A stretch of 64,000 nucleotides of DNA. It comes from an uncultured Collinsella sp. GTDB taxonomy: Bacteria > Actinomycetota > Coriobacteriia > Coriobacteriales > Coriobacteriaceae. Location of the stretch: assembly GCA_902469055.1 (NCBI GenBank), contig CABRBC010000009.1, positions 16,655-80,654 of the forward strand, in the 5' to 3' direction. Under the pieces are notes generated by a model. It was given only the letters and a program-made list of their open reading frames with translations, did not search any database and was not told the DNA's origin. Positions 4,378 through 46,130 of the stretch are shown here, one piece after another (the first letter of the stretch is position 1; every line of letters begins with the position of its first letter). A program made the position numbers and the translations under genes.

Positions 4378-5751
4378 CTACTGCGACTTGGGATGCTTCT
4401 TCTTATTGAGTGCCGACGGAGATACGCGAATACCATCGCCTGTCTGGCGCACATAGGCTTTATGAGCCGGCTTAGCGGTCCCAGAAGCCTTCTGAGCGCG
4501 CTTCTTGGGATCAACGGTAACAGCATTCGTGGGGTGCGGCATAGTGGGCGCAGAGGGCGTCTGAGGCGTGCGGCCGAGCTTGCGCATCACACGATCCCAG
4601 CGCGCATGGATGCTCTCGTTGTGGGCGCTCTTAAGTCCCAGCAGGGGCGCAGCCAAAATGGTCGGCGCAATAAACGTAATGAGGCGCCACAGCAGATAGC
4701 CGGCGGTCGAAGCCGACCCAAAGAAATGACCCAAGAACAATGCAAAGCCGCCCTCAGCGCCACCAGTTCCACCGGGCAGGGGGACCGCAGAGCTCAGCAG
4801 CTGGACAAAGGCGCTCGCGGCCATGACCGAGAAAAAGTCGACCTCGTGGTGGCCAAAGGCAAGCATCAGGAAATACGGCACGAGGTAGAAAAACGCGAGT
4901 TGCAGCATGGTGATGACCACCGTGAGCAGCATGGAAGAAAAATGTCCGGCCGAAAGCTTGAACTTCTCGGAGAAGGAGTAGATCTCGCCATCGACAAACG
5001 TGCGCCATCCCTCGATCTTAGTGGCCGAGACACCAATGCGCTCAAGCCAATTGATGATGCAATGGGCGACGCGCGTGACGGTCTTAGGCATGAGCGCGAC
5101 GGCGAAGATGCCCAGCAAGATGCAGCAGTGTCCACCAAAGCTAAAGACGCACAGCAGCGTCATGTCGCCATAGCGCTCGGCAAAAAACGGCATGCGAGCA
5201 AGCAGTAGGATAGCGCCCCAGGCAACGAGGCCAAACTGGTACACGATAAAACGCGTGAATTGCGTGGCGCCGGCCTCGCCCACGTTTTGGCCGGCCTTGG
5301 TCAGGCGATAGATTTGAGCCGGGGTGGAGCCCATCATCATGGGCGTCAGGTTACCAAAGAAGATGCCACTCGCCTCGACCGAGATCAGGTCGCGGATGCC
5401 GACGGGCGAATTGGGATCGAGCCAGACGGCGATCGCATAGGCCACAATGCCAAAGAACAGGTACATGAACATGCAAAGACACGCGACAACGAGCCATGAC
5501 GCCTGGACGCTCGACATAGCGGCCCAGAACTGCCCCATCTGCCCGGTTACCACCAGATAGACGATATAACCTACCAGCACGACGCCGATAAAGATGGCGC
5601 CGCGGCGTGCGCTCTTATTGTCATCTCCGCCCGAGGCCTCAACCTCGACCTGGGGCTTAGACGTATGCTGAGAGGACTCCGTCATGAGACTCCTTCTAAC
5701 AGTCAAAATATCTTGGATATTGTACCCGTAAGGGCCATAGGCAGAACGCAA
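4378..5751 (-). CDS. Integral membrane protein, UPF0104/lysylphosphatidylglycerol-synthase-TM-like (flippase-like) family, with a Pro/Lys-rich C-terminal tail
   Basis: 457 aa with many predicted TM helices, a GGTGGAEGGF motif and a basic low-complexity C-terminus. Family assignment is by resemblance only. Confidence 0.55.
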   Translation of the reverse strand: MRSAYGPYGYNIQDILTVRRSLMTESSQHTSKPQVEVEASGGDDNKSARRGAIFIGVVLVGYIVYLVVTGQMGQFWAAMSSVQASWLVVACLCMFMYLFFGIVAYAIAVWLDPNSPVGIRDLISVEASGIFFGNLTPMMMGSTPAQIYRLTKAGQNVGEAGATQFTRFIVYQFGLVAWGAILLLARMPFFAERYGDMTLLCVFSFGGHCCILLGIFAVALMPKTVTRVAHCIINWLERIGVSATKIEGWRTFVDGEIYSFSEKFKLSAGHFSSMLLTVVITMLQLAFFYLVPYFLMLAFGHHEVDFFSVMAASAFVQLLSSAVPLPGGTGGAEGGFALFLGHFFGSASTAGYLLWRLITFIAPTILAAPLLGLKSAHNESIHARWDRVMRKLGRTPQTPSAPTMPHPTNAVTVDPKKRAQKASGTAKPAHKAYVRQTGDGIRVSPSALNKKKHPKSQ

Positions 5752-5836: not shown

Positions 5837-5913
5837 TGGTAGCCCGTACCAGATTCGAACTGGTGATCTCCGCCTTGAGAGGGCGGCGTCCTAAACCGCT
5901 AGACGAACGGGCC
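5837..5913 (-). tRNA. tRNA-Glu (anticodon CUC), copy 1
   Basis: Reverse complement is GGCCCGTTCGTCTAGCGGTTTAGGACGCCGCCCTCTCAAGGCGGAGATCACCAGTTCGAATCTGGTACGGGCTACCA. It has a 7 bp acceptor stem, the Glu-type GTCTAGCGGTT D arm, anticodon loop CUCUCAA, a GTTCGAATC T-loop and an encoded CCA. Confidence 0.85.
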
Positions 5914-5935
5914 ATAAGCCTCAGCAGAAAAGAAG

Positions 5936-6012
5936 TGGTAGCCCGTACCAGATTCGAACTGGTGATCTCCGCCTTGAGAGGGCGGCGTCCTAAACCGCTA
6001 GACGAACGGGCC
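5936..6012 (-). tRNA. tRNA-Glu (anticodon CUC), copy 2, identical to copy 1
   Basis: Exact duplicate of the 77 nt tRNA, 99 bp downstream in direct orientation. Confidence 0.85.
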
Positions 6013-6139: not shown

Positions 6140-7534
6140 CTAATTCAAGTTGAGATGAACCAAAAGAGCTTCGCGCTCGTTGGGAATATCGTCTTCGATC
6201 ACGGCGTCGAGGGCGGAGTTGAGAAGCTGCCCCAGTTCCGGCCCGGGCTTGACTCCAGCACGGATCAAGTCGCCGCCGTTGATGGCGAGCATCTTGAGCG
6301 TATAGGGCTCCCCCGCCCTCAGCAGCTCGTGCGCCATCGCGCGCATCTCCTCAATCGTCTCAACGTAATAGAAGCACGACGGGGCCTTGCCAAGTGTGTC
6401 GGCACGCTTAAGGTCCATGAGCTCGTCAATCAGGCGGGCCGTGTCGACGCCCTCACCCGAAAGCGCGCGCATCATATTGAGCAGACAGGAGCGCTCGGGG
6501 CGCAGCGGCTTGTCATGGTATTTGATGAGCAGGCACACGTCGCGCACCAAGTCGTGCGAGAGCGCCAGGCGATCCATAATGACGCGCGCCTTCTTGGCGC
6601 CGAGCTCGGGATGACCGTAGAAGTGTCCGCTACCGGCATGGTCGACCGTGAAGCACTCGGGCTTGGACACATCGTGCAAAAACGCCGCCCACATAAGGCT
6701 CGACGAGAGCGCGACGCCGTCACACAGCGCGAGCTCCCCCGCCACCGTCAGCACACGGGCGATATGCACGTAGACGTTAAAAGCATGATAGACACTGCGC
6801 TGATCAAACCCGCGACCCGCTGCCAACTCGGGCACAGCGGCACAGATGAGCTCGGGATAGCGAAGCATCGCGTCTCCCCCATGACCGGTCGAAAGAATGC
6901 CCTCGAGCTCAATACCCACACGCTCACGCGCCACGGCATTGAGCAGCGGCGCGCACTCGGCAAGCGCACGCTTGGTCTCGGGCTCAATCATAAAGTCCAG
7001 ACGGCAGGCAAAGCGCACCGCACGCAGCATGCGCAGGGCGTCCTCGTTAAAGCGACGCTTGGGATCGCCGACAGCGCGAATCAGCTTGCGCTCCAAGTCA
7101 CCCTGGCCGTCGTAGCGGTCGACAAGCCCGCGCTCGGGATGCCAGGCCATGGCATTGACGGTAAAGTCGCGGCGCGCCAGATCGTCCTCGAGCGAGGCAG
7201 CACGCTCCACACTCTGGGGATGACGACCATCGGTGTAAAAGCCATCCAGACGGTACGTGGTGACCTCGATACGCTCGCCATCGGAAATAGCCGTGATTCC
7301 GCCAAATTTAATGCCCGACTCCACAACCGCGATGCCGGCGGCCTCGAGCGCCGCTTTGGACTCCTGCCACAGGCCGCTACAGCACATATCAACATCGTGG
7401 CTGGGGTACCCCATCAGGGCGTCGCGCACCCAACCGCCCACGTACCAAGCCTCAAGACCAGCCGCCTCAAGCGCGCGCAGGACGCGCAGGGACGCATCGG
7501 ACGGTTGAGTACCGTTGAGCGAAACATTGCACAT
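6140..7534 (-). CDS. cca: CCA tRNA nucleotidyltransferase (poly(A) polymerase head domain plus HD domain)
   Basis: GGWVRDALMG and DVDM nucleotidyltransferase motifs. The C-terminal HD domain has FLHDVSKP and HFYGH. Confidence 0.8.
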   Translation of the reverse strand: MCNVSLNGTQPSDASLRVLRALEAAGLEAWYVGGWVRDALMGYPSHDVDMCCSGLWQESKAALEAAGIAVVESGIKFGGITAISDGERIEVTTYRLDGFYTDGRHPQSVERAASLEDDLARRDFTVNAMAWHPERGLVDRYDGQGDLERKLIRAVGDPKRRFNEDALRMLRAVRFACRLDFMIEPETKRALAECAPLLNAVARERVGIELEGILSTGHGGDAMLRYPELICAAVPELAAGRGFDQRSVYHAFNVYVHIARVLTVAGELALCDGVALSSSLMWAAFLHDVSKPECFTVDHAGSGHFYGHPELGAKKARVIMDRLALSHDLVRDVCLLIKYHDKPLRPERSCLLNMMRALSGEGVDTARLIDELMDLKRADTLGKAPSCFYYVETIEEMRAMAHELLRAGEPYTLKMLAINGGDLIRAGVKPGPELGQLLNSALDAVIEDDIPNEREALLVHLNLN

Positions 7535-7698: not shown

Positions 7699-8631
7699 CT
7701 AGCAGACCTGGCGAACCTCGATGTGCTTCTTATATTCGTCCACCTTGGCAAAATCACCCAGACCGGGGCACTCGACCACGTTGGCGCCAGTGGCCATCGA
7801 AAGGCGCAGGGCGTCCTCGACGCGCTCGGGGGCGTCGTGCCACACGGACAGGAAGGCAGCGAGCGAGGAATCGCCGGCGCACACAGTCGACAGCAGCTTG
7901 ACGTCGAAGGTGCGGTTGGCAAACCAGATATGCTCGCCGTTGGAGAAGTACGCACCGGCGCCACCAAGGGTCAGCAGCACGTTCTTGGCGCCCTTGGCGT
8001 GCAGCTCGGCCATAGCGCCCTTGACGGACTCGTCGTCGCCACCGCTCACCTTGATGCCAAAGATGTCAAGCAGCTCGTCGTCATTGGGCTTGATCAGCAG
8101 TGGCTCCAGAGCAATGAGGTCTGCCAGCTGATGGCTCGAGATGTCGAGGACGAACTCGGCCCCCTTGGCCTTGACACGGCGCAGGACCTCGGCCAAGAAG
8201 CCCTCGGAAGTGTTGGGAGGCAGCGAGCCGCTGATGACCAGGCAGGTCATGTCATCGAGCGAATCGATAAGTTCAAACATCTCCTGCTCGTTGGCCTCAT
8301 TGATGGCGGCACCGGCATTGACCATGTTGTACTCGGTGTCGGGACCGGCGTTGAGGAACACATTGACGCGCGTAATACCGTCGGTCCACACGGGCTTGAC
8401 GGGCACGCCCAGGGCCTCGGCGCCCTTAACGATAAACTCACCCGAGAAGCCGGCGAAGAAACCCAGGATCGTGGTGTCGACACCATAGTGGTCAAGCGTA
8501 AACGAGACGTTGAGGCCCTTGCCGTTGGGCGTGTAGACGGCATTGCGGGTACGCGTGACGGTATTGGCAGTAAGGCCGTCGCAGGCGATGTTGTAGTCAA
8601 TGGCGGGATTTGCAGTGAGCGTGTAAATCAT
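7699..8631 (-). CDS. PfkB-family sugar-phosphate kinase (1-phosphofructokinase / tagatose-6-P kinase / PfkB paralogue)
   Basis: MIYTLTANPAIDYN... N-terminus and GG/NxxE-type PfkB motifs. RBS AAAGGA lies 6 nt upstream of the ATG at 8631 (the ORF track starts 5 codons earlier). Separated from the upstream paralogue by a terminator. Confidence 0.8.
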   Translation of the reverse strand: MIYTLTANPAIDYNIACDGLTANTVTRTRNAVYTPNGKGLNVSFTLDHYGVDTTILGFFAGFSGEFIVKGAEALGVPVKPVWTDGITRVNVFLNAGPDTEYNMVNAGAAINEANEQEMFELIDSLDDMTCLVISGSLPPNTSEGFLAEVLRRVKAKGAEFVLDISSHQLADLIALEPLLIKPNDDELLDIFGIKVSGGDDESVKGAMAELHAKGAKNVLLTLGGAGAYFSNGEHIWFANRTFDVKLLSTVCAGDSSLAAFLSVWHDAPERVEDALRLSMATGANVVECPGLGDFAKVDEYKKHIEVRQVC

Positions 8632-8762
8632 GAATGTTCCTTTCACGAAGCAACGTGTTAATGAAAGTATATTCCACGCATCGGTAAAAGGCTAGGACAA
8701 CTCGGCGAACGGTGTGGAAGCGATGAAGTACGGCGGGACCCCTCTCCCCCGCGGCGGAACAA

Positions 8763-8792
8763 AAAGGCGCCCCAGCCGAAACCGGGGCGCCA
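8763..8792 (-). terminator. Rho-independent terminator downstream of fruK
   Basis: Minus-strand reading: ggcgccccggtttcggctggggcgcc hairpin followed by TTTTTGTT. Confidence 0.5.
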
Positions 8793-8819
8793 CATGCGAA
8801 CGAATATGTCGCGTTTCGA

Positions 8820-9752
8820 TTACTGACGATCGAGCTTGCGGACAGCAACGCGCTTGCTGTACTCGTCGACGTGACCGAAGTCGCCGATGCCGACGGACTC
8901 GGCAACGTTGGCGCCGGTGGCCATAGCGAGCTTCATGGCCTCCTCGACGTTGTCGCGATCCCTGTACCACTTGTGCAGGAACGCAGCGAGGGTGCAGTCG
9001 CCGGCGCAGACAGAAGAAACCAGCTTGATGTTGAACTCACGCTTGGCGTACCAGATGTCCTCGCCGTTGGAGAAGTAAGCGTCGCCGCGGCTACCACGGG
9101 TGAGCAGCACGTTCTGAACGCCAGCGTCGTGAGCCATCTTCATGGCAACGCGGACCTCGTCGTCGGTGTCGACCGGCACGCCGAAGATGGCCTTCATCTC
9201 GTGATGGTTCGGCTTGATGAGCAGAGGCTTCTTGTGAGCGAGCTCCTTGAGCTTGTCGGAGGACAGGTCCAGGACGACGTCGGCGCCACGAGCCTGAGCG
9301 TGCTCCATGACCTTAGCCAGGAAGTCAGGCGTAGCTTTGGGAGGAACGGAGCCGGAAACGATCAGGCACTCGAGATCGCCCGCGGTGTCCAGGATGTTGT
9401 AGAGCTCCTCCTGGTGCTGCGGCGTGATCGGAGCACCCGGGTTCAGGATGCCGTACTCGTGCTGGCCATCGTTGACGTAGGTGTTAATGCGCGTGATACC
9501 GTCGGTCCAGACCGGGCGGCAGAGGCAACCCAGGTTCATGACCTCCTCGACGATGAACTTGCCCGTGAAGCCGGCGAAGAAGCCGAGCGCGACGGTGTCG
9601 ACGCCCATCTTCTTAAAGGCGAAGGACACGTCGAGGCCCTTGCCGTTAGCCGTGTAGCTGGCCGAGCCGGTGCGGACGTTCTCGTCGGGCTCGAGCGGAG
9701 AGCTCGAAACCGTCATGTCGACAGCCGGGTTAGCGGTTAGCGTGTAGAACAT
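8820..9752 (-). CDS. fruK: 1-phosphofructokinase (PfkB family), last gene of the ptsHI-fruK unit
   Basis: MFYTLTANPAVDMT... It is 74 bp downstream of ptsI on the same strand and paralogous to the ORF at 7699..8631. Confidence 0.8.
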   Translation of the reverse strand: MFYTLTANPAVDMTVSSSPLEPDENVRTGSASYTANGKGLDVSFAFKKMGVDTVALGFFAGFTGKFIVEEVMNLGCLCRPVWTDGITRINTYVNDGQHEYGILNPGAPITPQHQEELYNILDTAGDLECLIVSGSVPPKATPDFLAKVMEHAQARGADVVLDLSSDKLKELAHKKPLLIKPNHHEMKAIFGVPVDTDDEVRVAMKMAHDAGVQNVLLTRGSRGDAYFSNGEDIWYAKREFNIKLVSSVCAGDCTLAAFLHKWYRDRDNVEEAMKLAMATGANVAESVGIGDFGHVDEYSKRVAVRKLDRQ

Positions 9753-11581: not shown

Positions 11582-11618
11582 CAAAAGAGCGCAGTTACCT
11601 TACAACAGGTCACTGCGC
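11582..11618 (-). terminator. Partial terminator/attenuator hairpin between ptsH and ptsI
   Basis: Minus-strand reading: gcgcagtgacctgttgtaaggtaactgcgc hairpin then TCTTTTGT, lying between the ptsH stop and the ptsI start. Confidence 0.4.
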
Positions 11619-11663
11619 CCCCAAATATGAACTTAGTTGTTCAGCATGCGACCCGTTTGAGTT

Positions 11664-11927
11664 CTACTCGCCAAGACCGCTCTTGATGAGCTCGATGGCA
11701 GCAGCCAGAGCCTCGGCCTCGTCGGCGCCGTCGCACTTGACCTCGACCTCGGTACCGCAGGGGATACCAGCAGCCATGAGGGCCATCGGGGACTTGCCGT
11801 TGACCTCCTTCTCGGGGGTGACGACCGTCACGTCACAGGCGTACTTGCCCATGGTGGAGGCGAACAGACCAGCCGGACGCATGTGCAGACCCTGAGGATT
11901 AACGAGGGTAGCCTTCTCAGAAACCAT
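11664..11927 (-). CDS. ptsH: Phosphocarrier protein HPr
   Basis: 87 aa with the active-site His15 context GLHMRPAG and the Ser46 context GKSPMALM. RBS AAGGAG upstream. Confidence 0.9.
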   Translation of the reverse strand: MVSEKATLVNPQGLHMRPAGLFASTMGKYACDVTVVTPEKEVNGKSPMALMAAGIPCGTEVEVKCDGADEAEALAAAIELIKSGLGE

Positions 11928-12065
11928 AGTTGACTCCTTTTTTGTGTTTAACCCCTGTCATGTATGTGGCAGGAGTCAGATTCACGACGTTGTTTATATT
12001 AACTCACATCAAACGGTTTTTCATTATGTTTCGGACGAATTGTTGGACAGATGTGTTTGTCGTCC

Positions 12066-12217
12066 GCTTGCTCGCCCACAGGGGGCCGGGCGCGGCCAGT
12101 GAGATTTCCTGCTCTACAGTCCTGCTCGCACGAAGAGCACATTAAGTGCTCTTCGGCTCGTGCGGAACTCGCGATAAATCTCACTGGCCGCGCCCGGCCC
12201 CCTGTGGGCGAGCAAGC
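12066..12217. repeat. 152 bp palindromic element with perfect 40 bp inverted-repeat arms, a 72 bp spacer and a nested 10 bp palindrome
   Basis: Left arm 12066-12105 (gcttgctcgcccacagggggccgggcgcggccagtgagat) is the exact reverse complement of the right arm 12178-12217. The spacer holds cgaagagcac-attaa-gtgctcttcg. Non-coding: the two ORF-track peptides here mirror each other because of the palindrome. Confidence 0.9.
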
Positions 12218-12321
12218 TGCAGAAACTCGGTCGGTCCAGAGCAATATCGTGCGAACGGAATTCTGGCTAATGATCTGTTCGCGACAAAGACTCGATAGGT
12301 AGCCCCCTCTATGCCCTTTTG

Positions 12322-12393
12322 TAAGTTGCGGTGAAATAGGGACTGAATTTGGGGTTGAATCGTTTAAACAGTCCCTATTTCACCGCAACTTAT
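12322..12393. repeat. Small inverted-repeat element, copy A (24 bp perfect arms, 24 bp spacer)
   Basis: taagttgcggtgaaatagggactg ... cagtccctatttcaccgcaactta. A related copy is at 46061..46130. Confidence 0.85.
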
Positions 12394-12475
12394 GGGAGGG
12401 ATAGAAAAAGGCGGAGGCCCTGGAGAGAGACTCCGCCTTATATACAGTGGGCGATGTTATTCGCGTACCGTGGAA

Positions 12476-14479
12476 TTAGACCAGACGAGCGTTGATCGTC
12501 TTGGCGATCTCGGCGGCGTCGGTGGAACCCTTGACGGTGGCACGGAAGTCCTCGTCCATGAGCGCCTCGGCGACCTTGGACAGGATCTTGAGGTGCGTGG
12601 TACCGGCCTGGGCACCGGGGATGAGCAGGGCGATAGCCACGTTGACGGGAGCGCCGTCCATGGTGTCCCAACCGGTCACGCCGGACTCGTCCTTGACGAC
12701 GATGACGGCAGCCTCGGTAATGGCATCGGACTTGGCATGCGGGATGGCGAAGCCCTCCATCATGCCCGTGGTGCCCTCGGCCTCGCGGGCCAGGAAGGCG
12801 TTCATCACGGCGTCGGCGTCGCTGGCGATACCGGCCTTGACAGCCTGGTTGGAAACGAAGCTCAGAGCCTCGTCACGAGAAGCGAAGTCCTCGGCGACAA
12901 AGACATTCTCGACCTTCACGAAGTCGGCAGCCTCGGCCTTGGGGGCCTCGACGGCAGCGGCCTTGGGGGCCTCAACGGACTTGGCTACAGGAGCGGCCTT
13001 CTGATTCTTCTCGAAGTCGTACTTCTTGAAGGCCACGAACAGGATACCACCGACCACAGCGCCGATGAGGATCGCGAGGACCCACAGCGGACCGTTCTCG
13101 ACAACGGGCAGGACCAGGAAGCCGCCGTGAGGCGCCGGATCGTGAACGTTGAAGAAGATGGTCAAGATGGAAGCGATGGAAGAACCGAGCATCATGATGG
13201 GCATGACGGGCCAGATGTTCTTGGTCATGAACGGAATGGCGCCCTCGGTGATGTGGGTGCAACCAAGGATGAGGTTGACGATACCGGCGTCATGATCCTC
13301 CTGGCTGAAGTACTTCTTGCCGACAACGACGGCGAAGGTGGTGATCAGCGGCGGAACGATGCAAGCGGCGGAGACGGCAGCCATGAAGTTGGTGCCGAAG
13401 TTGTAGGTCTCGGTGCCGACGCCAGCTTCGAGAGCGGTACCGAGCAGGAAGGTACCAGTAGCGTAAGCAGCCTTGTTGACCGGGCCGCCCATATCAAAGG
13501 CGCACATGCAGCCGATGGCCAGGCCAAGGATCACCGGACCGGAGTTACCGAGGCTCTGCAGGAAATCCATCATACCCTGGTTAATGGCAGCCATGGGGCC
13601 GGAAATACCGAGCATGACCAGGCCGACGATGGCGGTAGAGCACAGCGGATACAGGAAGATTGCCTTCAGGCCATTAAGGCTCGCGGGAATTTTAGAGAAA
13701 ACCTTCTCGAGCAGCAGGATGACATAGCCGGCGAGGAAGCCGCCGACGATGCCGCCCAGGAAGCCGAAGCCCACGCCGGCGCCACCGGCGTCGATCATGC
13801 CGGTCTCGGCGTTAACAGGCAGGCCCTGGATGGCAATCATACCGGCAACGAAACCGGGGACGAGCGCCGGGCGCTTGCCGATGGATTCGGCGATGTAGGC
13901 GGAAAGCACCGGAACCATAAGGTTCATGGCGATGCCGCCGATGATCTTGAGCATCGCAGCAAAGCTGTTGTAGTCGGCAGCCGTCGAATCAAAGGACGTG
14001 ATGCCCCACAGGAACGAAATGGCGGTCAGAACACCACCGGCAACGACGAAGACCAGCATGTGGCTGACGCCGTTCATGAGGTGCTTGTAGATGACGTGGC
14101 CGATGGACTCCTTCTCCTCGACCTCGTCCTCGACATCGGCGGCAGCGGCAACCGTGTCGTCGCCCTTGGCGGCGAGCGCGCGGTCGATCAGCTTACCAGC
14201 AGCCTCGACAGACAGGGCCTTGGAAACACCAACGGAAACCATGGGCTTACCGGCGAAACGCTCAGCCTGGACATCCTTATCGGCTGCGACGACGACGGCC
14301 TTGGCACCGGCGATCTCGCTCTTGGTGAGCTCGTTCTCGACACCGACCTGGCCATGAGTCTCGACCTTAATGGTCAGACCGCGCTCGGCAGCTGCCTTCT
14401 CCAGCGCCTCCTTCGCCATGAAGGTGTGCGCAATGCCGGTCGGGCAACCGGTCGCGGCGATGATGTCAAACTTAGCCAT
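12476..14479 (-). CDS. fruA: PTS fructose-family transporter, fused IIB-IIC-IIA
   Basis: N-terminal IIB (MAKFDIIAATGCPTGIAHTFMA), large IIC membrane domain, C-terminal IIA (AIPHAKSD). Start at MAKF with RBS AAGGAGG (the ORF track starts 24 codons earlier). Confidence 0.9.
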   Translation of the reverse strand: MAKFDIIAATGCPTGIAHTFMAKEALEKAAAERGLTIKVETHGQVGVENELTKSEIAGAKAVVVAADKDVQAERFAGKPMVSVGVSKALSVEAAGKLIDRALAAKGDDTVAAAADVEDEVEEKESIGHVIYKHLMNGVSHMLVFVVAGGVLTAISFLWGITSFDSTAADYNSFAAMLKIIGGIAMNLMVPVLSAYIAESIGKRPALVPGFVAGMIAIQGLPVNAETGMIDAGGAGVGFGFLGGIVGGFLAGYVILLLEKVFSKIPASLNGLKAIFLYPLCSTAIVGLVMLGISGPMAAINQGMMDFLQSLGNSGPVILGLAIGCMCAFDMGGPVNKAAYATGTFLLGTALEAGVGTETYNFGTNFMAAVSAACIVPPLITTFAVVVGKKYFSQEDHDAGIVNLILGCTHITEGAIPFMTKNIWPVMPIMMLGSSIASILTIFFNVHDPAPHGGFLVLPVVENGPLWVLAILIGAVVGGILFVAFKKYDFEKNQKAAPVAKSVEAPKAAAVEAPKAEAADFVKVENVFVAEDFASRDEALSFVSNQAVKAGIASDADAVMNAFLAREAEGTTGMMEGFAIPHAKSDAITEAAVIVVKDESGVTGWDTMDGAPVNVAIALLIPGAQAGTTHLKILSKVAEALMDEDFRATVKGSTDAAEIAKTINARLV

Positions 14480-14703
14480 GTGTCCCTCCTTCTTGAGTAC
14501 AGCGCCCTCGGGCGCTCCCCTACACGCGCTTCGATGCGCGTTTTTCCACAACTGAAAGATACCAACCTACCGTCCGCGTGAGAAGAGACAAGGCGCAATT
14601 CTCCGGTGAAAGGTTCTTTCATAACCGTAAACGGCAAGTGAAAGTTTACCATCAACACTTGAAACGGCAAGGTGTATCTTGTAATTGAAAATGCCCGTAT
14701 ACT

Positions 14704-46060: not shown

Positions 46061-46130
46061 AAGTTGCGGTGGAATAGTACTTGTTTGACGGTCCGCAAGG
46101 GCTTTTCAGGAACTATTTCACCGCAACTTA
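46061..46130. repeat. Small inverted-repeat element, copy B (related to 12322..12393)
   Basis: aagttgcggtggaatagtact ... ggaactatttcaccgcaacttat. It shares aagttgcggtg(a/g)aatag and tatttcaccgcaacttat with copy A. Confidence 0.8.

Follow-up and report, generated by a model that had tools for sequence, protein, structure and literature searches.

A perfect palindrome between fruA and ptsH carries the conserved core of a dispersed Collinsella intergenic repeat family with site-specific arms

What is a 152-bp palindrome with perfect arms doing between the phosphotransferase system (PTS) genes fruA and ptsH of an uncultured Collinsella sp., a genus that includes Collinsella aerofaciens, one of the most prevalent Actinomycetota of the human gut? 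The palindrome occupies positions 12066-12217 of a 64,000-nt stretch of contig CABRBC010000009.1 (assembly GCA_902469055.1), which was analyzed as a whole and is referred to here as the window. A previous reading of the letters alone (the sequence-only reading) had suggested a bidirectional terminator or ribonuclease III (RNase III) processing site, a miniature inverted-repeat element (MITE) or a binding array for a dimeric regulator. Here, the palindrome was found to belong, essentially certainly, to a dispersed Collinsella intergenic repeat family, and the repeated part of this family is the ~68-nt spacer (the core) and not the arm. We consider it probable (at roughly 60%) that the palindrome is one copy of a Collinsella-specific family in which a conserved core is framed by site-specific arms kept identical at the DNA level, and that the copy at ptsH is a passenger. 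Collinsella literature searched on repeats and palindromes, RNA motifs and invertons gave no description of the element, and the family is apparently undescribed. It reverses the usual logic of bacterial repeats, as its center is conserved and its arms are site-specific, perfectly paired and fast-evolving.

A long perfect inverted repeat with an asymmetric core

An inverted-repeat search placed the two arms at 12066-12107 and 12176-12217, 42 nt each and 100% complementary, on either side of a 68-nt spacer. The long perfect repeat reported by the sequence-only reading was therefore real, but its arms had been given as 40 nt and its spacer as 72 nt; the nested 10-bp palindrome was recovered exactly as described (12131-12140 and 12146-12155, with a 5-nt loop), and gene order confirmed the location between fruA and ptsH. 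The palindrome is the longest inverted repeat of the whole window. At up to three mismatches, the 42-mer arm occurs in the window at these two places only, with 0 occurrences expected from 100 shuffles. Predicted RNA folding energies were -140 and -145 kcal/mol on the two strands (z ~ -14 on each) and the DNA folding energy was -80.6 kcal/mol (z = -14.9), values far beyond chance. The element was present at the ptsH position in more than 30 independent assemblies, so the palindrome is not an assembly artefact. Two open reading frames (ORFs) that span it (11999..12244, minus strand; 12051..12302, plus strand) had been dismissed as mirror artefacts, and rightly so: they encode the same mirrored peptides, and their GC content at third codon positions (GC3) is 0.54 and 0.61 as opposed to 0.77-0.83 in real genes. 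Arm length also varies between strains by amounts not divisible by three, which likewise argues against coding ORFs. The parts of the element are as follows.

12066..12107, no strand: arm 1, 42 nt, GC-rich; the 3' arm in the core-sense (minus-strand) reading; specific to the ptsH site ("type A").
12108..12175, minus strand: conserved asymmetric core that defines the family, 68 nt; minus-strand reading ATCGCGAGTTCCGCACGAGCCGAAGAGCACTTAATGTGCTCTTCGTGCGAGCAGGACTGTAGAGCAGG.
12108..12129, minus strand: 3' half of the basal module, GCGAGCAGGACTGTAGAGCAGG, with an invariant CAGGAC(C)TG and with TCC/GGA pairs that bridge to the 5' half.
12131..12155, minus strand: apical hairpin, 10-bp stem and 5-nt loop at 12141-12145 (TTAAT on the minus strand).
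12159..12175, minus strand: 5' half of the basal module, ATCGCGAGTTCCGCACG; near-invariant between sites and retained in core variants.
12176..12217, no strand: arm 2, 42 nt, matching arm 1 exactly as its reverse complement; the 5' arm when the core is read in sense.

The asymmetry of the core gives the element a direction, as a covariance model of the family scored the core in the window at 102.6 bits on the minus strand and 37.6 bits on the plus strand. The same model found a single family copy in the window. Sequence inspection and a consensus scan revealed no T-run or U-tract after either arm, so that the element does not have the form of an intrinsic terminator. A target-site duplication, which the sequence-only reading had suggested looking for at 12066/12217, was absent as well: the direct repeat length at the borders (...TTTGTCGTCC / element / TGCAGAAACT...) is 0.

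The core is the repeated part

When one genome was taken for each GTDB species, a scan with CCGCACG-N8-AGCACTTAATGTGC as core pattern returned at least 120 contigs, and nearly all of the matches listed are titled Collinsella or Coriobacteriaceae. Two "Methanobrevibacter" contigs among the matches listed come from a contaminated bin, and one of them bears the ptsH site. A profile search with nhmmer identified 152 cores in 1.1 Mb of fetched loci, often 2-3 per 8 kb, and clustering of the copies by their flanks resolved at least 29 distinct intergenic sites. At least 12 places for the core were found by blastn in a single 900-kb C. aerofaciens chromosome fragment (NZ_OY725717.1, locus L138). This record (899,693 bp, C. 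aerofaciens TSDC17.2-1.1) was deposited as "plasmid 6" and carries recA, ftsK, rny, der, lexA and miaA/B, a gene content that reads as that of a chromosome fragment and not of a plasmid. As it was the single "plasmid" match, a plasmid origin of the family was rejected; phage and viral matches were absent from IMG/VR and INPHARED.

The arm behaved in the opposite way. When a 21-nt ptsH arm probe was used, all metagenome matches bearing the core or the phosphocarrier HPr were at the ptsH locus, and the other 9 of the 28 arm-probe matches, with neither core nor HPr, were contig-end fragments or unrelated contigs. The arm as repeat unit was thus ruled out, since it is limited to itself in the window and to the ptsH locus in metagenomes. 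Further arm copies had been proposed as a check for a MITE, with their absence and that of a target-site duplication counting against one. As neither exists, this test would have wrongly dismissed the element as a singleton. What survives of the MITE proposal is the dispersed repeat family; the repeated part is the spacer, the arm is found at the ptsH locus only and no target-site duplication is present.

Across the family the core is asymmetric and 61-70 nt long, and it consists of the basal module (ATCGCGAGTTCCGCACG ... GCAGGACTGT.GAGCAG) and an apical hairpin. TTCCGCACG and CAGGAC(C)TG are invariant in the family alignment. The core is framed by an inner stem of ~10-18 bp that is partly conserved (TTAAGTTTG-like), followed by a GC-rich outer stem unique to each genomic site. 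RNAalifold recovered the stem, the 3-bp TCC/GGA bridge and the apical hairpin, with changes on both sides at 19 of 28 pairs; covariation in the apical hairpin was located at alignment columns 46-66 and 48-64. The apical hairpin is nevertheless dispensable or replaceable: at the pdf site most genomes have a "mini" core without it, and in a metagenome contig covering the ptsH site (L147) it has been swapped for GGAGGCGCC-ACTG-GCGCCTCC on the same basal module. Searching Rfam 15 with the element at E up to 1 produced only spurious miRNA and sRNA matches below gathering score and no match by cmscan to Collinsella-1 (RF01700), which resembles the family in being a candidate structured element from Collinsella and the human gut (PMC2864571). 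At gathering scores, the window and nine family loci together yielded two tRNAs and nothing else.

Site-specific arms are nearly perfectly paired and the core between them rearranges

Family arms measured 15-49 bp (median 32) with 65% GC and 98.1% Watson-Crick pairing. Between different sites, the inner-arm sequence shared next to the core was 3 nt long in the median and never longer than 18 nt, and terminal inverted repeats conserved between copies, as expected of a MITE, were not found. Within a site, differences between species were fully compensated (e.g., GCGTGCCTGGCTG/CAGCCAGGCACGC vs. GCGGGTCTGGCCG/CGGCCAGACCCGC). The ptsH site illustrates both aspects. All ten of the ten strains with identical HPr carry the palindrome at the ptsH position, with at least three unalignable arm types (A, 42 nt, as in the window; B, 31 nt; C, 37 nt), each of which is nearly perfectly self-complementary. 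Only the spacer and the outermost ~11 bp (GCTYGCYYGCC / GGCRRGCRAGC) are common to these types, and each of the outer-arm variants GCTTGCTCGCC, GCTCGCCCGCC and GCTCGCCTGCC is paired with its matching partner and hence fully compensated. At this site the core had a mean pairwise identity of 0.90; the values were 0.79 in the left flank, 0.91 in the right flank (the ptsH promoter side) and 0.72-0.73 in the arms. A binding array for a dimeric regulator, another of the roles proposed previously, is unsupported, as the arms differ completely between strains at the ptsH locus.

To what level of selection the pairing belongs can be read from its exceptions. Among 2,710 arm pairs from 83 distinct elements, 51 mismatches were counted, of which 19 were G·T/T·G, 18 were A·C/C·A and 14 were others. 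As a selected RNA helix should tolerate G·U pairs on its transcribed strand, the finding that G·T is as rare as A·C points to DNA-level homogenization rather than RNA selection. RNA-only selection on the stem is unsupported by this mismatch spectrum, the symmetry of which fits fresh mutations awaiting correction on a DNA palindrome. The conclusion that the arms are kept identical at the DNA level is well supported, though inferred.

The core itself was found in both orientations between genomes. Exact core flips were observed at three sites, namely ptsH (L004, L120), upstream of rplC (L117, L130) and pdf (L014, with a mini core), with frequencies of 2/18 at the ptsH site and 2/10 at the rplC-upstream site. 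L004 (CP024160) and L002 have the same arms and flanks, but the 67-nt spacer of L004 runs in the exact opposite orientation, so that the flanks are swapped with respect to the spacer; L038 and L130 are related in the same way. Other rearrangements were also found and, like the flips, point to DNA-level maintenance. In copy 1 of locus L089 the core has been palindromized, its right half being the reverse complement of its left half, and at the rplC-upstream site the palindrome boundary has shifted while overall length hardly changed, with a flank-plus-arm total by manual count of 91 nt in L035 and 90 nt in L110. In a metagenome contig of the ptsH locus (L142, ~5900-5930), a deletion between CTGG microhomologies has removed the left arm and the core together with 12 nt of the right arm; the solo right arm that is left is a natural example of palindrome loss.

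Quasipalindrome template switching in bacteria and hairpin-loop inversion in plastids are processes in which strand switching perfects imperfect inverted repeats and flips the loop. A process of this kind would account for the perfect arms, compensated changes, flips, palindromized core and microhomology deletion. Following this reasoning, the two arms would be kept identical by template switching or gene conversion inside the palindrome, as known from quasipalindromes, and the same process would occasionally invert the core, palindromize it, shift its boundary or delete it. The perfection of the stem would then derive neither from RNA selection nor from recent insertion. The sequence-only reading had taken this perfection as a sign of recent origin or selection; however, the element is old at its site and common to many genomes of the C. 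aerofaciens group, so continuing arm homogenization is the better explanation. Quasipalindrome processes are generic and act on arbitrary hairpins, whereas the Collinsella case combines a conserved multi-copy core with gene-directed polarity. The family is thereby a natural system for palindrome homogenization, loop inversion and palindrome instability in vivo.

Many of the sequences used here are short-read metagenome-assembled genomes, and in some contigs (L164, L147, L091 and L094) the common core links arms that belong to two different sites. L164 is a hybrid contig that joins the GT2/S58 site to the ptsH site and is probably chimeric. The apparent recombinants L091 and L094 were, together with L164, treated as possibly chimeric and not used as evidence. 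About 20 of the 120 matches listed sit at contig ends, and chimeras in short-read assemblies of Collinsella are probably a result of the 68-nt repeat; binning and strain analysis in this genus should allow for contig ends and chimeras at the core.

The arms also have a compositional skew: whichever strand is read, G and T are enriched in the 5' arm, and C and A in the 3' arm. Left arms add up to 1086 G, 692 C, 577 T and 355 A. G-runs such as GGGCGGGGCGG are common in the arms, which may therefore have G-quadruplex potential.

At many sites one end of the element lies close to a coding sequence

Neighbors of the family copies include valS (at both ends), leuS, pcrA, pdf, thrC-thrB, murB, gyrA, metK, rnj, rplC and others, which are functionally unrelated housekeeping genes. 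Gene calls were made from ORF and GC3 heuristics, with a Pfam check on right-hand genes only. Read in core-sense orientation, 16 of the 29 sites have the right end of the palindrome no more than 40 nt from a coding-sequence boundary; none has the left end so placed. At 11 of these 16 abutting sites the element lies 7-36 nt beyond the stop codon of a gene reading toward it, and at the remaining 5 it lies 13-23 nt ahead of the Shine-Dalgarno sequence (SD)/ATG of a gene reading away. The left side typically extends for 60-260 nt and often includes a canonical terminator; at the pdf site, for example, the order is stop codon, 7 nt, element, ~150 nt, terminator, fmt. No conserved motif that would explain the polarity was found in the left flanks, only the frequent canonical terminators and, in three 5' cases, -10-like hexamers. 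As mRNAs would have the core in sense in 5' untranslated regions (UTRs) and in antisense in 3' UTRs, the polarity is set on the DNA relative to the nearest gene and does not follow the direction in which transcription runs. A riboswitch or regulon leader was excluded on account of the unrelated neighbors and this same change from sense to antisense. If the polarity reflects function, the family would represent an unrecognized layer of gene-boundary organization around core genes, valS, leuS, pdf, pcrA and ptsH among them.

Two configurations with paired copies were observed. In L061 (1500-1598 and 4344-4443) and L040 (1928-2025 and 4770-4868), valS is bracketed by two inverted family members whose core-sense right ends both face the gene, one of them 19-20 nt ahead of the ATG and the other 19 nt beyond the stop codon. 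Downstream of rpoC in L089 there are two direct copies of a whole element (4762-4965 and 6937-7140; a 204-nt repeat, 89% identical, 2,175 nt apart) that bracket genes for an extracytoplasmic function (ECF) sigma factor and a DUF4179 anti-sigma factor. L100 has one copy at this same rpoC-downstream site, and the elements may serve as recombination or duplication points for the ECF sigma cassette.

The ptsH copy lies between a terminator and a probable promoter

On the minus strand of the window, fruA (PTS IIBCA, 14551..12476) is followed by a 548-nt spacer, ptsH (11927..11664), ptsI and two pfkB genes; an rpiR-like gene and recN are further neighbors of the locus. The two pfkB genes are tandem paralogues of the 1-phosphofructokinase type after ptsI (window 7699-9752). 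The palindrome stands 258 nt beyond the fruA stop codon and 138 nt ahead of the ptsH ATG, an atypical placement for the family. A canonical fruA terminator, with a hairpin and a T-run right after the fruA stop codon, was located at 12408-12439 (minus strand) and was the only terminator picked up by a consensus scan (at 12408-12421); its stem also displays compensated variation between strains. The stretch between the element and the ptsH ATG is almost invariant between strains and includes a block at ~11985-12045 (minus strand, ...CATAATGAAAAACCGTTTGATGTGAGTTAATATAAACAACG...) with a -10-like TAATAT and an operator-like imperfect palindrome, TGAAAAACCGTTTGA. Judging from these motifs, the block is probably the ptsH promoter and operator, which would place the promoter downstream of the element; a consensus scan for sigma-70-like promoters found none within 11600-12700. 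Given its position between the fruA terminator and the probable promoter block, the ptsH copy is most likely a passenger. At most, an extremely stable hairpin or cruciform formed by it would stand in the way of read-through from fruA.

The distribution of the ptsH copy is also narrow. The exact HPr of the window occurs in C. aerofaciens genomes (e.g., CP024160) and is indexed in ~79,000 blocks of a public contig collection. Among HPr relatives at 76-92% identity, no family member was found within several kb, and their spacers were unalignable or the locus was rearranged. Collinsella sp. zg1085 keeps the fruA-ptsH-ptsI-pfkB-pfkB order with a 269-nt spacer that lacks the element. The ptsH copy is confined to the C. 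aerofaciens group, and these relatives without it mark the copy as an acquisition of that group. For the ptsH locus the practical message is modest, namely that the palindrome is not the ancestral regulatory site of the fructose-PTS operon.

Alternative explanations

Could the element instead be a structured cis-acting RNA of UTRs, with a long stem that keeps exonucleases out or is a site of RNase III action or termination, and conserved core loops that bind a protein to tune mRNA stability or processing? Much of the census would suit such a role, as the abutting copies (16 of 29 sites) lie inside the likely transcription unit of the adjacent gene (11 after a stop codon and before a canonical terminator, 5 before an SD/ATG), a -10-like hexamer ends 2 nt ahead of the stem in three of the 5' cases, unpaired nucleotides of the core are conserved, the apical hairpin covaries and the predicted fold is very stable. 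However, a single RNA-binding factor cannot read a core that would be sense in 5' UTRs and antisense in 3' UTRs, the stems display no excess of G·U over A·C, U-tracts and Rfam matches are absent, the neighboring genes are unrelated and the ptsH copy sits between a terminator and a probable promoter; we regard this explanation as possible but unlikely. The occurrence of both core orientations at the ptsH, rplC-upstream and pdf sites with otherwise identical sequence would also be expected of an inverton, in which a recombinase flips the 68-bp core between inverted repeats and thereby toggles an orientation-dependent signal for the adjacent gene, as would the asymmetry of the core, whose orientation correlates with the nearest coding sequence. 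Yet the flips are rare, the invertible segment is merely 36-68 bp, no sigma-70-like promoter is present in or near it, and no invertase is found among the immediate neighbors (fruA, ptsH, ptsI, pfkB, rpiR-like, recN). As the arms differ at every site, no site-specific recombinase could recognize them, and short loop inversions between long inverted repeats happen without a recombinase, all of which makes an inverton improbable.

A classical MITE between fruA and ptsH, i.e., an inserted non-autonomous transposon bounded by terminal inverted repeats, appears slightly more improbable still. It agrees with a multi-copy intergenic family of ~100-165-bp palindromic units, with a partly conserved inner stem of 10-18 bp that can be read as short terminal repeats, and with the two direct copies around the ECF sigma/anti-sigma cassette in L089. 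Against it, the element has no target-site duplication, no empty site was recovered, its long arms are not common to different sites, copies are stable at orthologous sites in many species, the family is absent from phage and viral collections, and no transposase or parent insertion sequence was seen adjoining any copy. A doubtful but more consequential alternative is that the core is recognized by a DNA enzyme or binding protein dedicated to it and acting in trans, which seeds or rebuilds long site-specific palindromes by copying flanks and has a polar action on the abutting gene. If true, this would constitute a mobility or maintenance mechanism unlike transposition by terminal inverted repeats and target-site duplication, it would explain the right-end bias (16 sites vs. 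0) whatever the direction of the gene, and the family would form a new class of DNA element at gene boundaries, present in an abundant commensal of the human gut.

Several points weigh against the interpretation preferred here, a dispersed family with a conserved core, homogenized arms and a passenger copy at ptsH. No precise empty site was recovered in 665 all-against-all flank comparisons, so that insertion, and hence mobility, is putative; the site-specific arms could have been copied from a flank or could be hairpins that existed beforehand. The C. aerofaciens-group pdf loci examined all have a full or mini element, and in a species with a 78% identical Pdf the pdf-fmt spacer is 32 nt with nothing alignable. 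The right-end bias is not what a passive, purely selfish palindrome would predict, and it suggests an orientation-dependent function or an insertion rule. At the ptsH site the core is more conserved than the left flank and the arms and is thus constrained or homogenized. The search pattern fixes the apical hairpin and so biases estimates of conservation, and some of the recombinant or flipped states derive from short-read assemblies, in which a 68-nt repeat can cause mis-joins, and may be assembly artefacts.

Comparison with known repeat systems

The family is a REP/ERIC-like intergenic palindrome family with inverted logic, and its nearest kinds are palindromes of the REP/BIME/REPIN, ERIC and MITE types, from which it departs in lacking conserved stems or termini and target duplication. 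Similar to the REP/BIME/REPIN elements of Proteobacteria with their RAYT transposases, the copies are short, multi-copy extragenic palindromes that form stable hairpins; both kinds occupy transcribed DNA between genes and the 3' UTRs of housekeeping genes that are unrelated to each other, with tens to hundreds of copies per genome. In REP/REPIN, however, the stem is conserved (GTAG head) and the loop variable, whereas the Collinsella family conserves the core and has a stem that is mostly specific to the site. Its alignment shows no conserved GTAG; the variants TGTAGAG, TGTCCGAG and TGCCCGAG occur. ERIC/IRU elements of enterobacteria and Correia/CREE elements of Neisseria are likewise intergenic, imperfect palindromes of ~100-150 bp that are co-transcribed with their neighbors, and Correia elements are RNase III substrates and carry promoters. 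Both have conserved terminal repeats (with a TA target duplication in Correia), in contrast to the Collinsella family, which has no duplication and whose common termini do not exceed ~10-18 bp.

With invertons such as fimS or the Bacteroides capsule promoters, the family shares inverted repeats around a segment found in both orientations, and it differs in the 68-bp size of this segment, the absence of a promoter consensus, repeats that vary by site, the lack of a nearby invertase and the rarity of flips among genomes. Integron attC sites are also hairpins next to the 3' ends of genes, with conserved structure and much cassette-specific sequence. Conversely, attC boxes are conserved at the outer ends with a variable center, which is the opposite of the Collinsella arrangement, and the neighbors here are housekeeping genes instead of cassettes, with no integrase context seen.

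Other features of the window

A second, separate dispersed palindrome family, with perfect 24-nt arms (TAAGTTGCGGTGAAATAGGGACTG) and a 23-nt spacer, was detected in the window at 12322-12392 and 46061-46129 and at loci L027, L035, L076, L080, L085, L093 and L116. Strains L002 and L004 lack it in their fruA-ptsH spacer. In this family it is the arms that stay conserved from one unrelated locus to another, a trait of REP or MITE elements. On the minus strand of the window, two tRNA genes with identical scores stand in tandem at 5840-5913 and 5939-6012.

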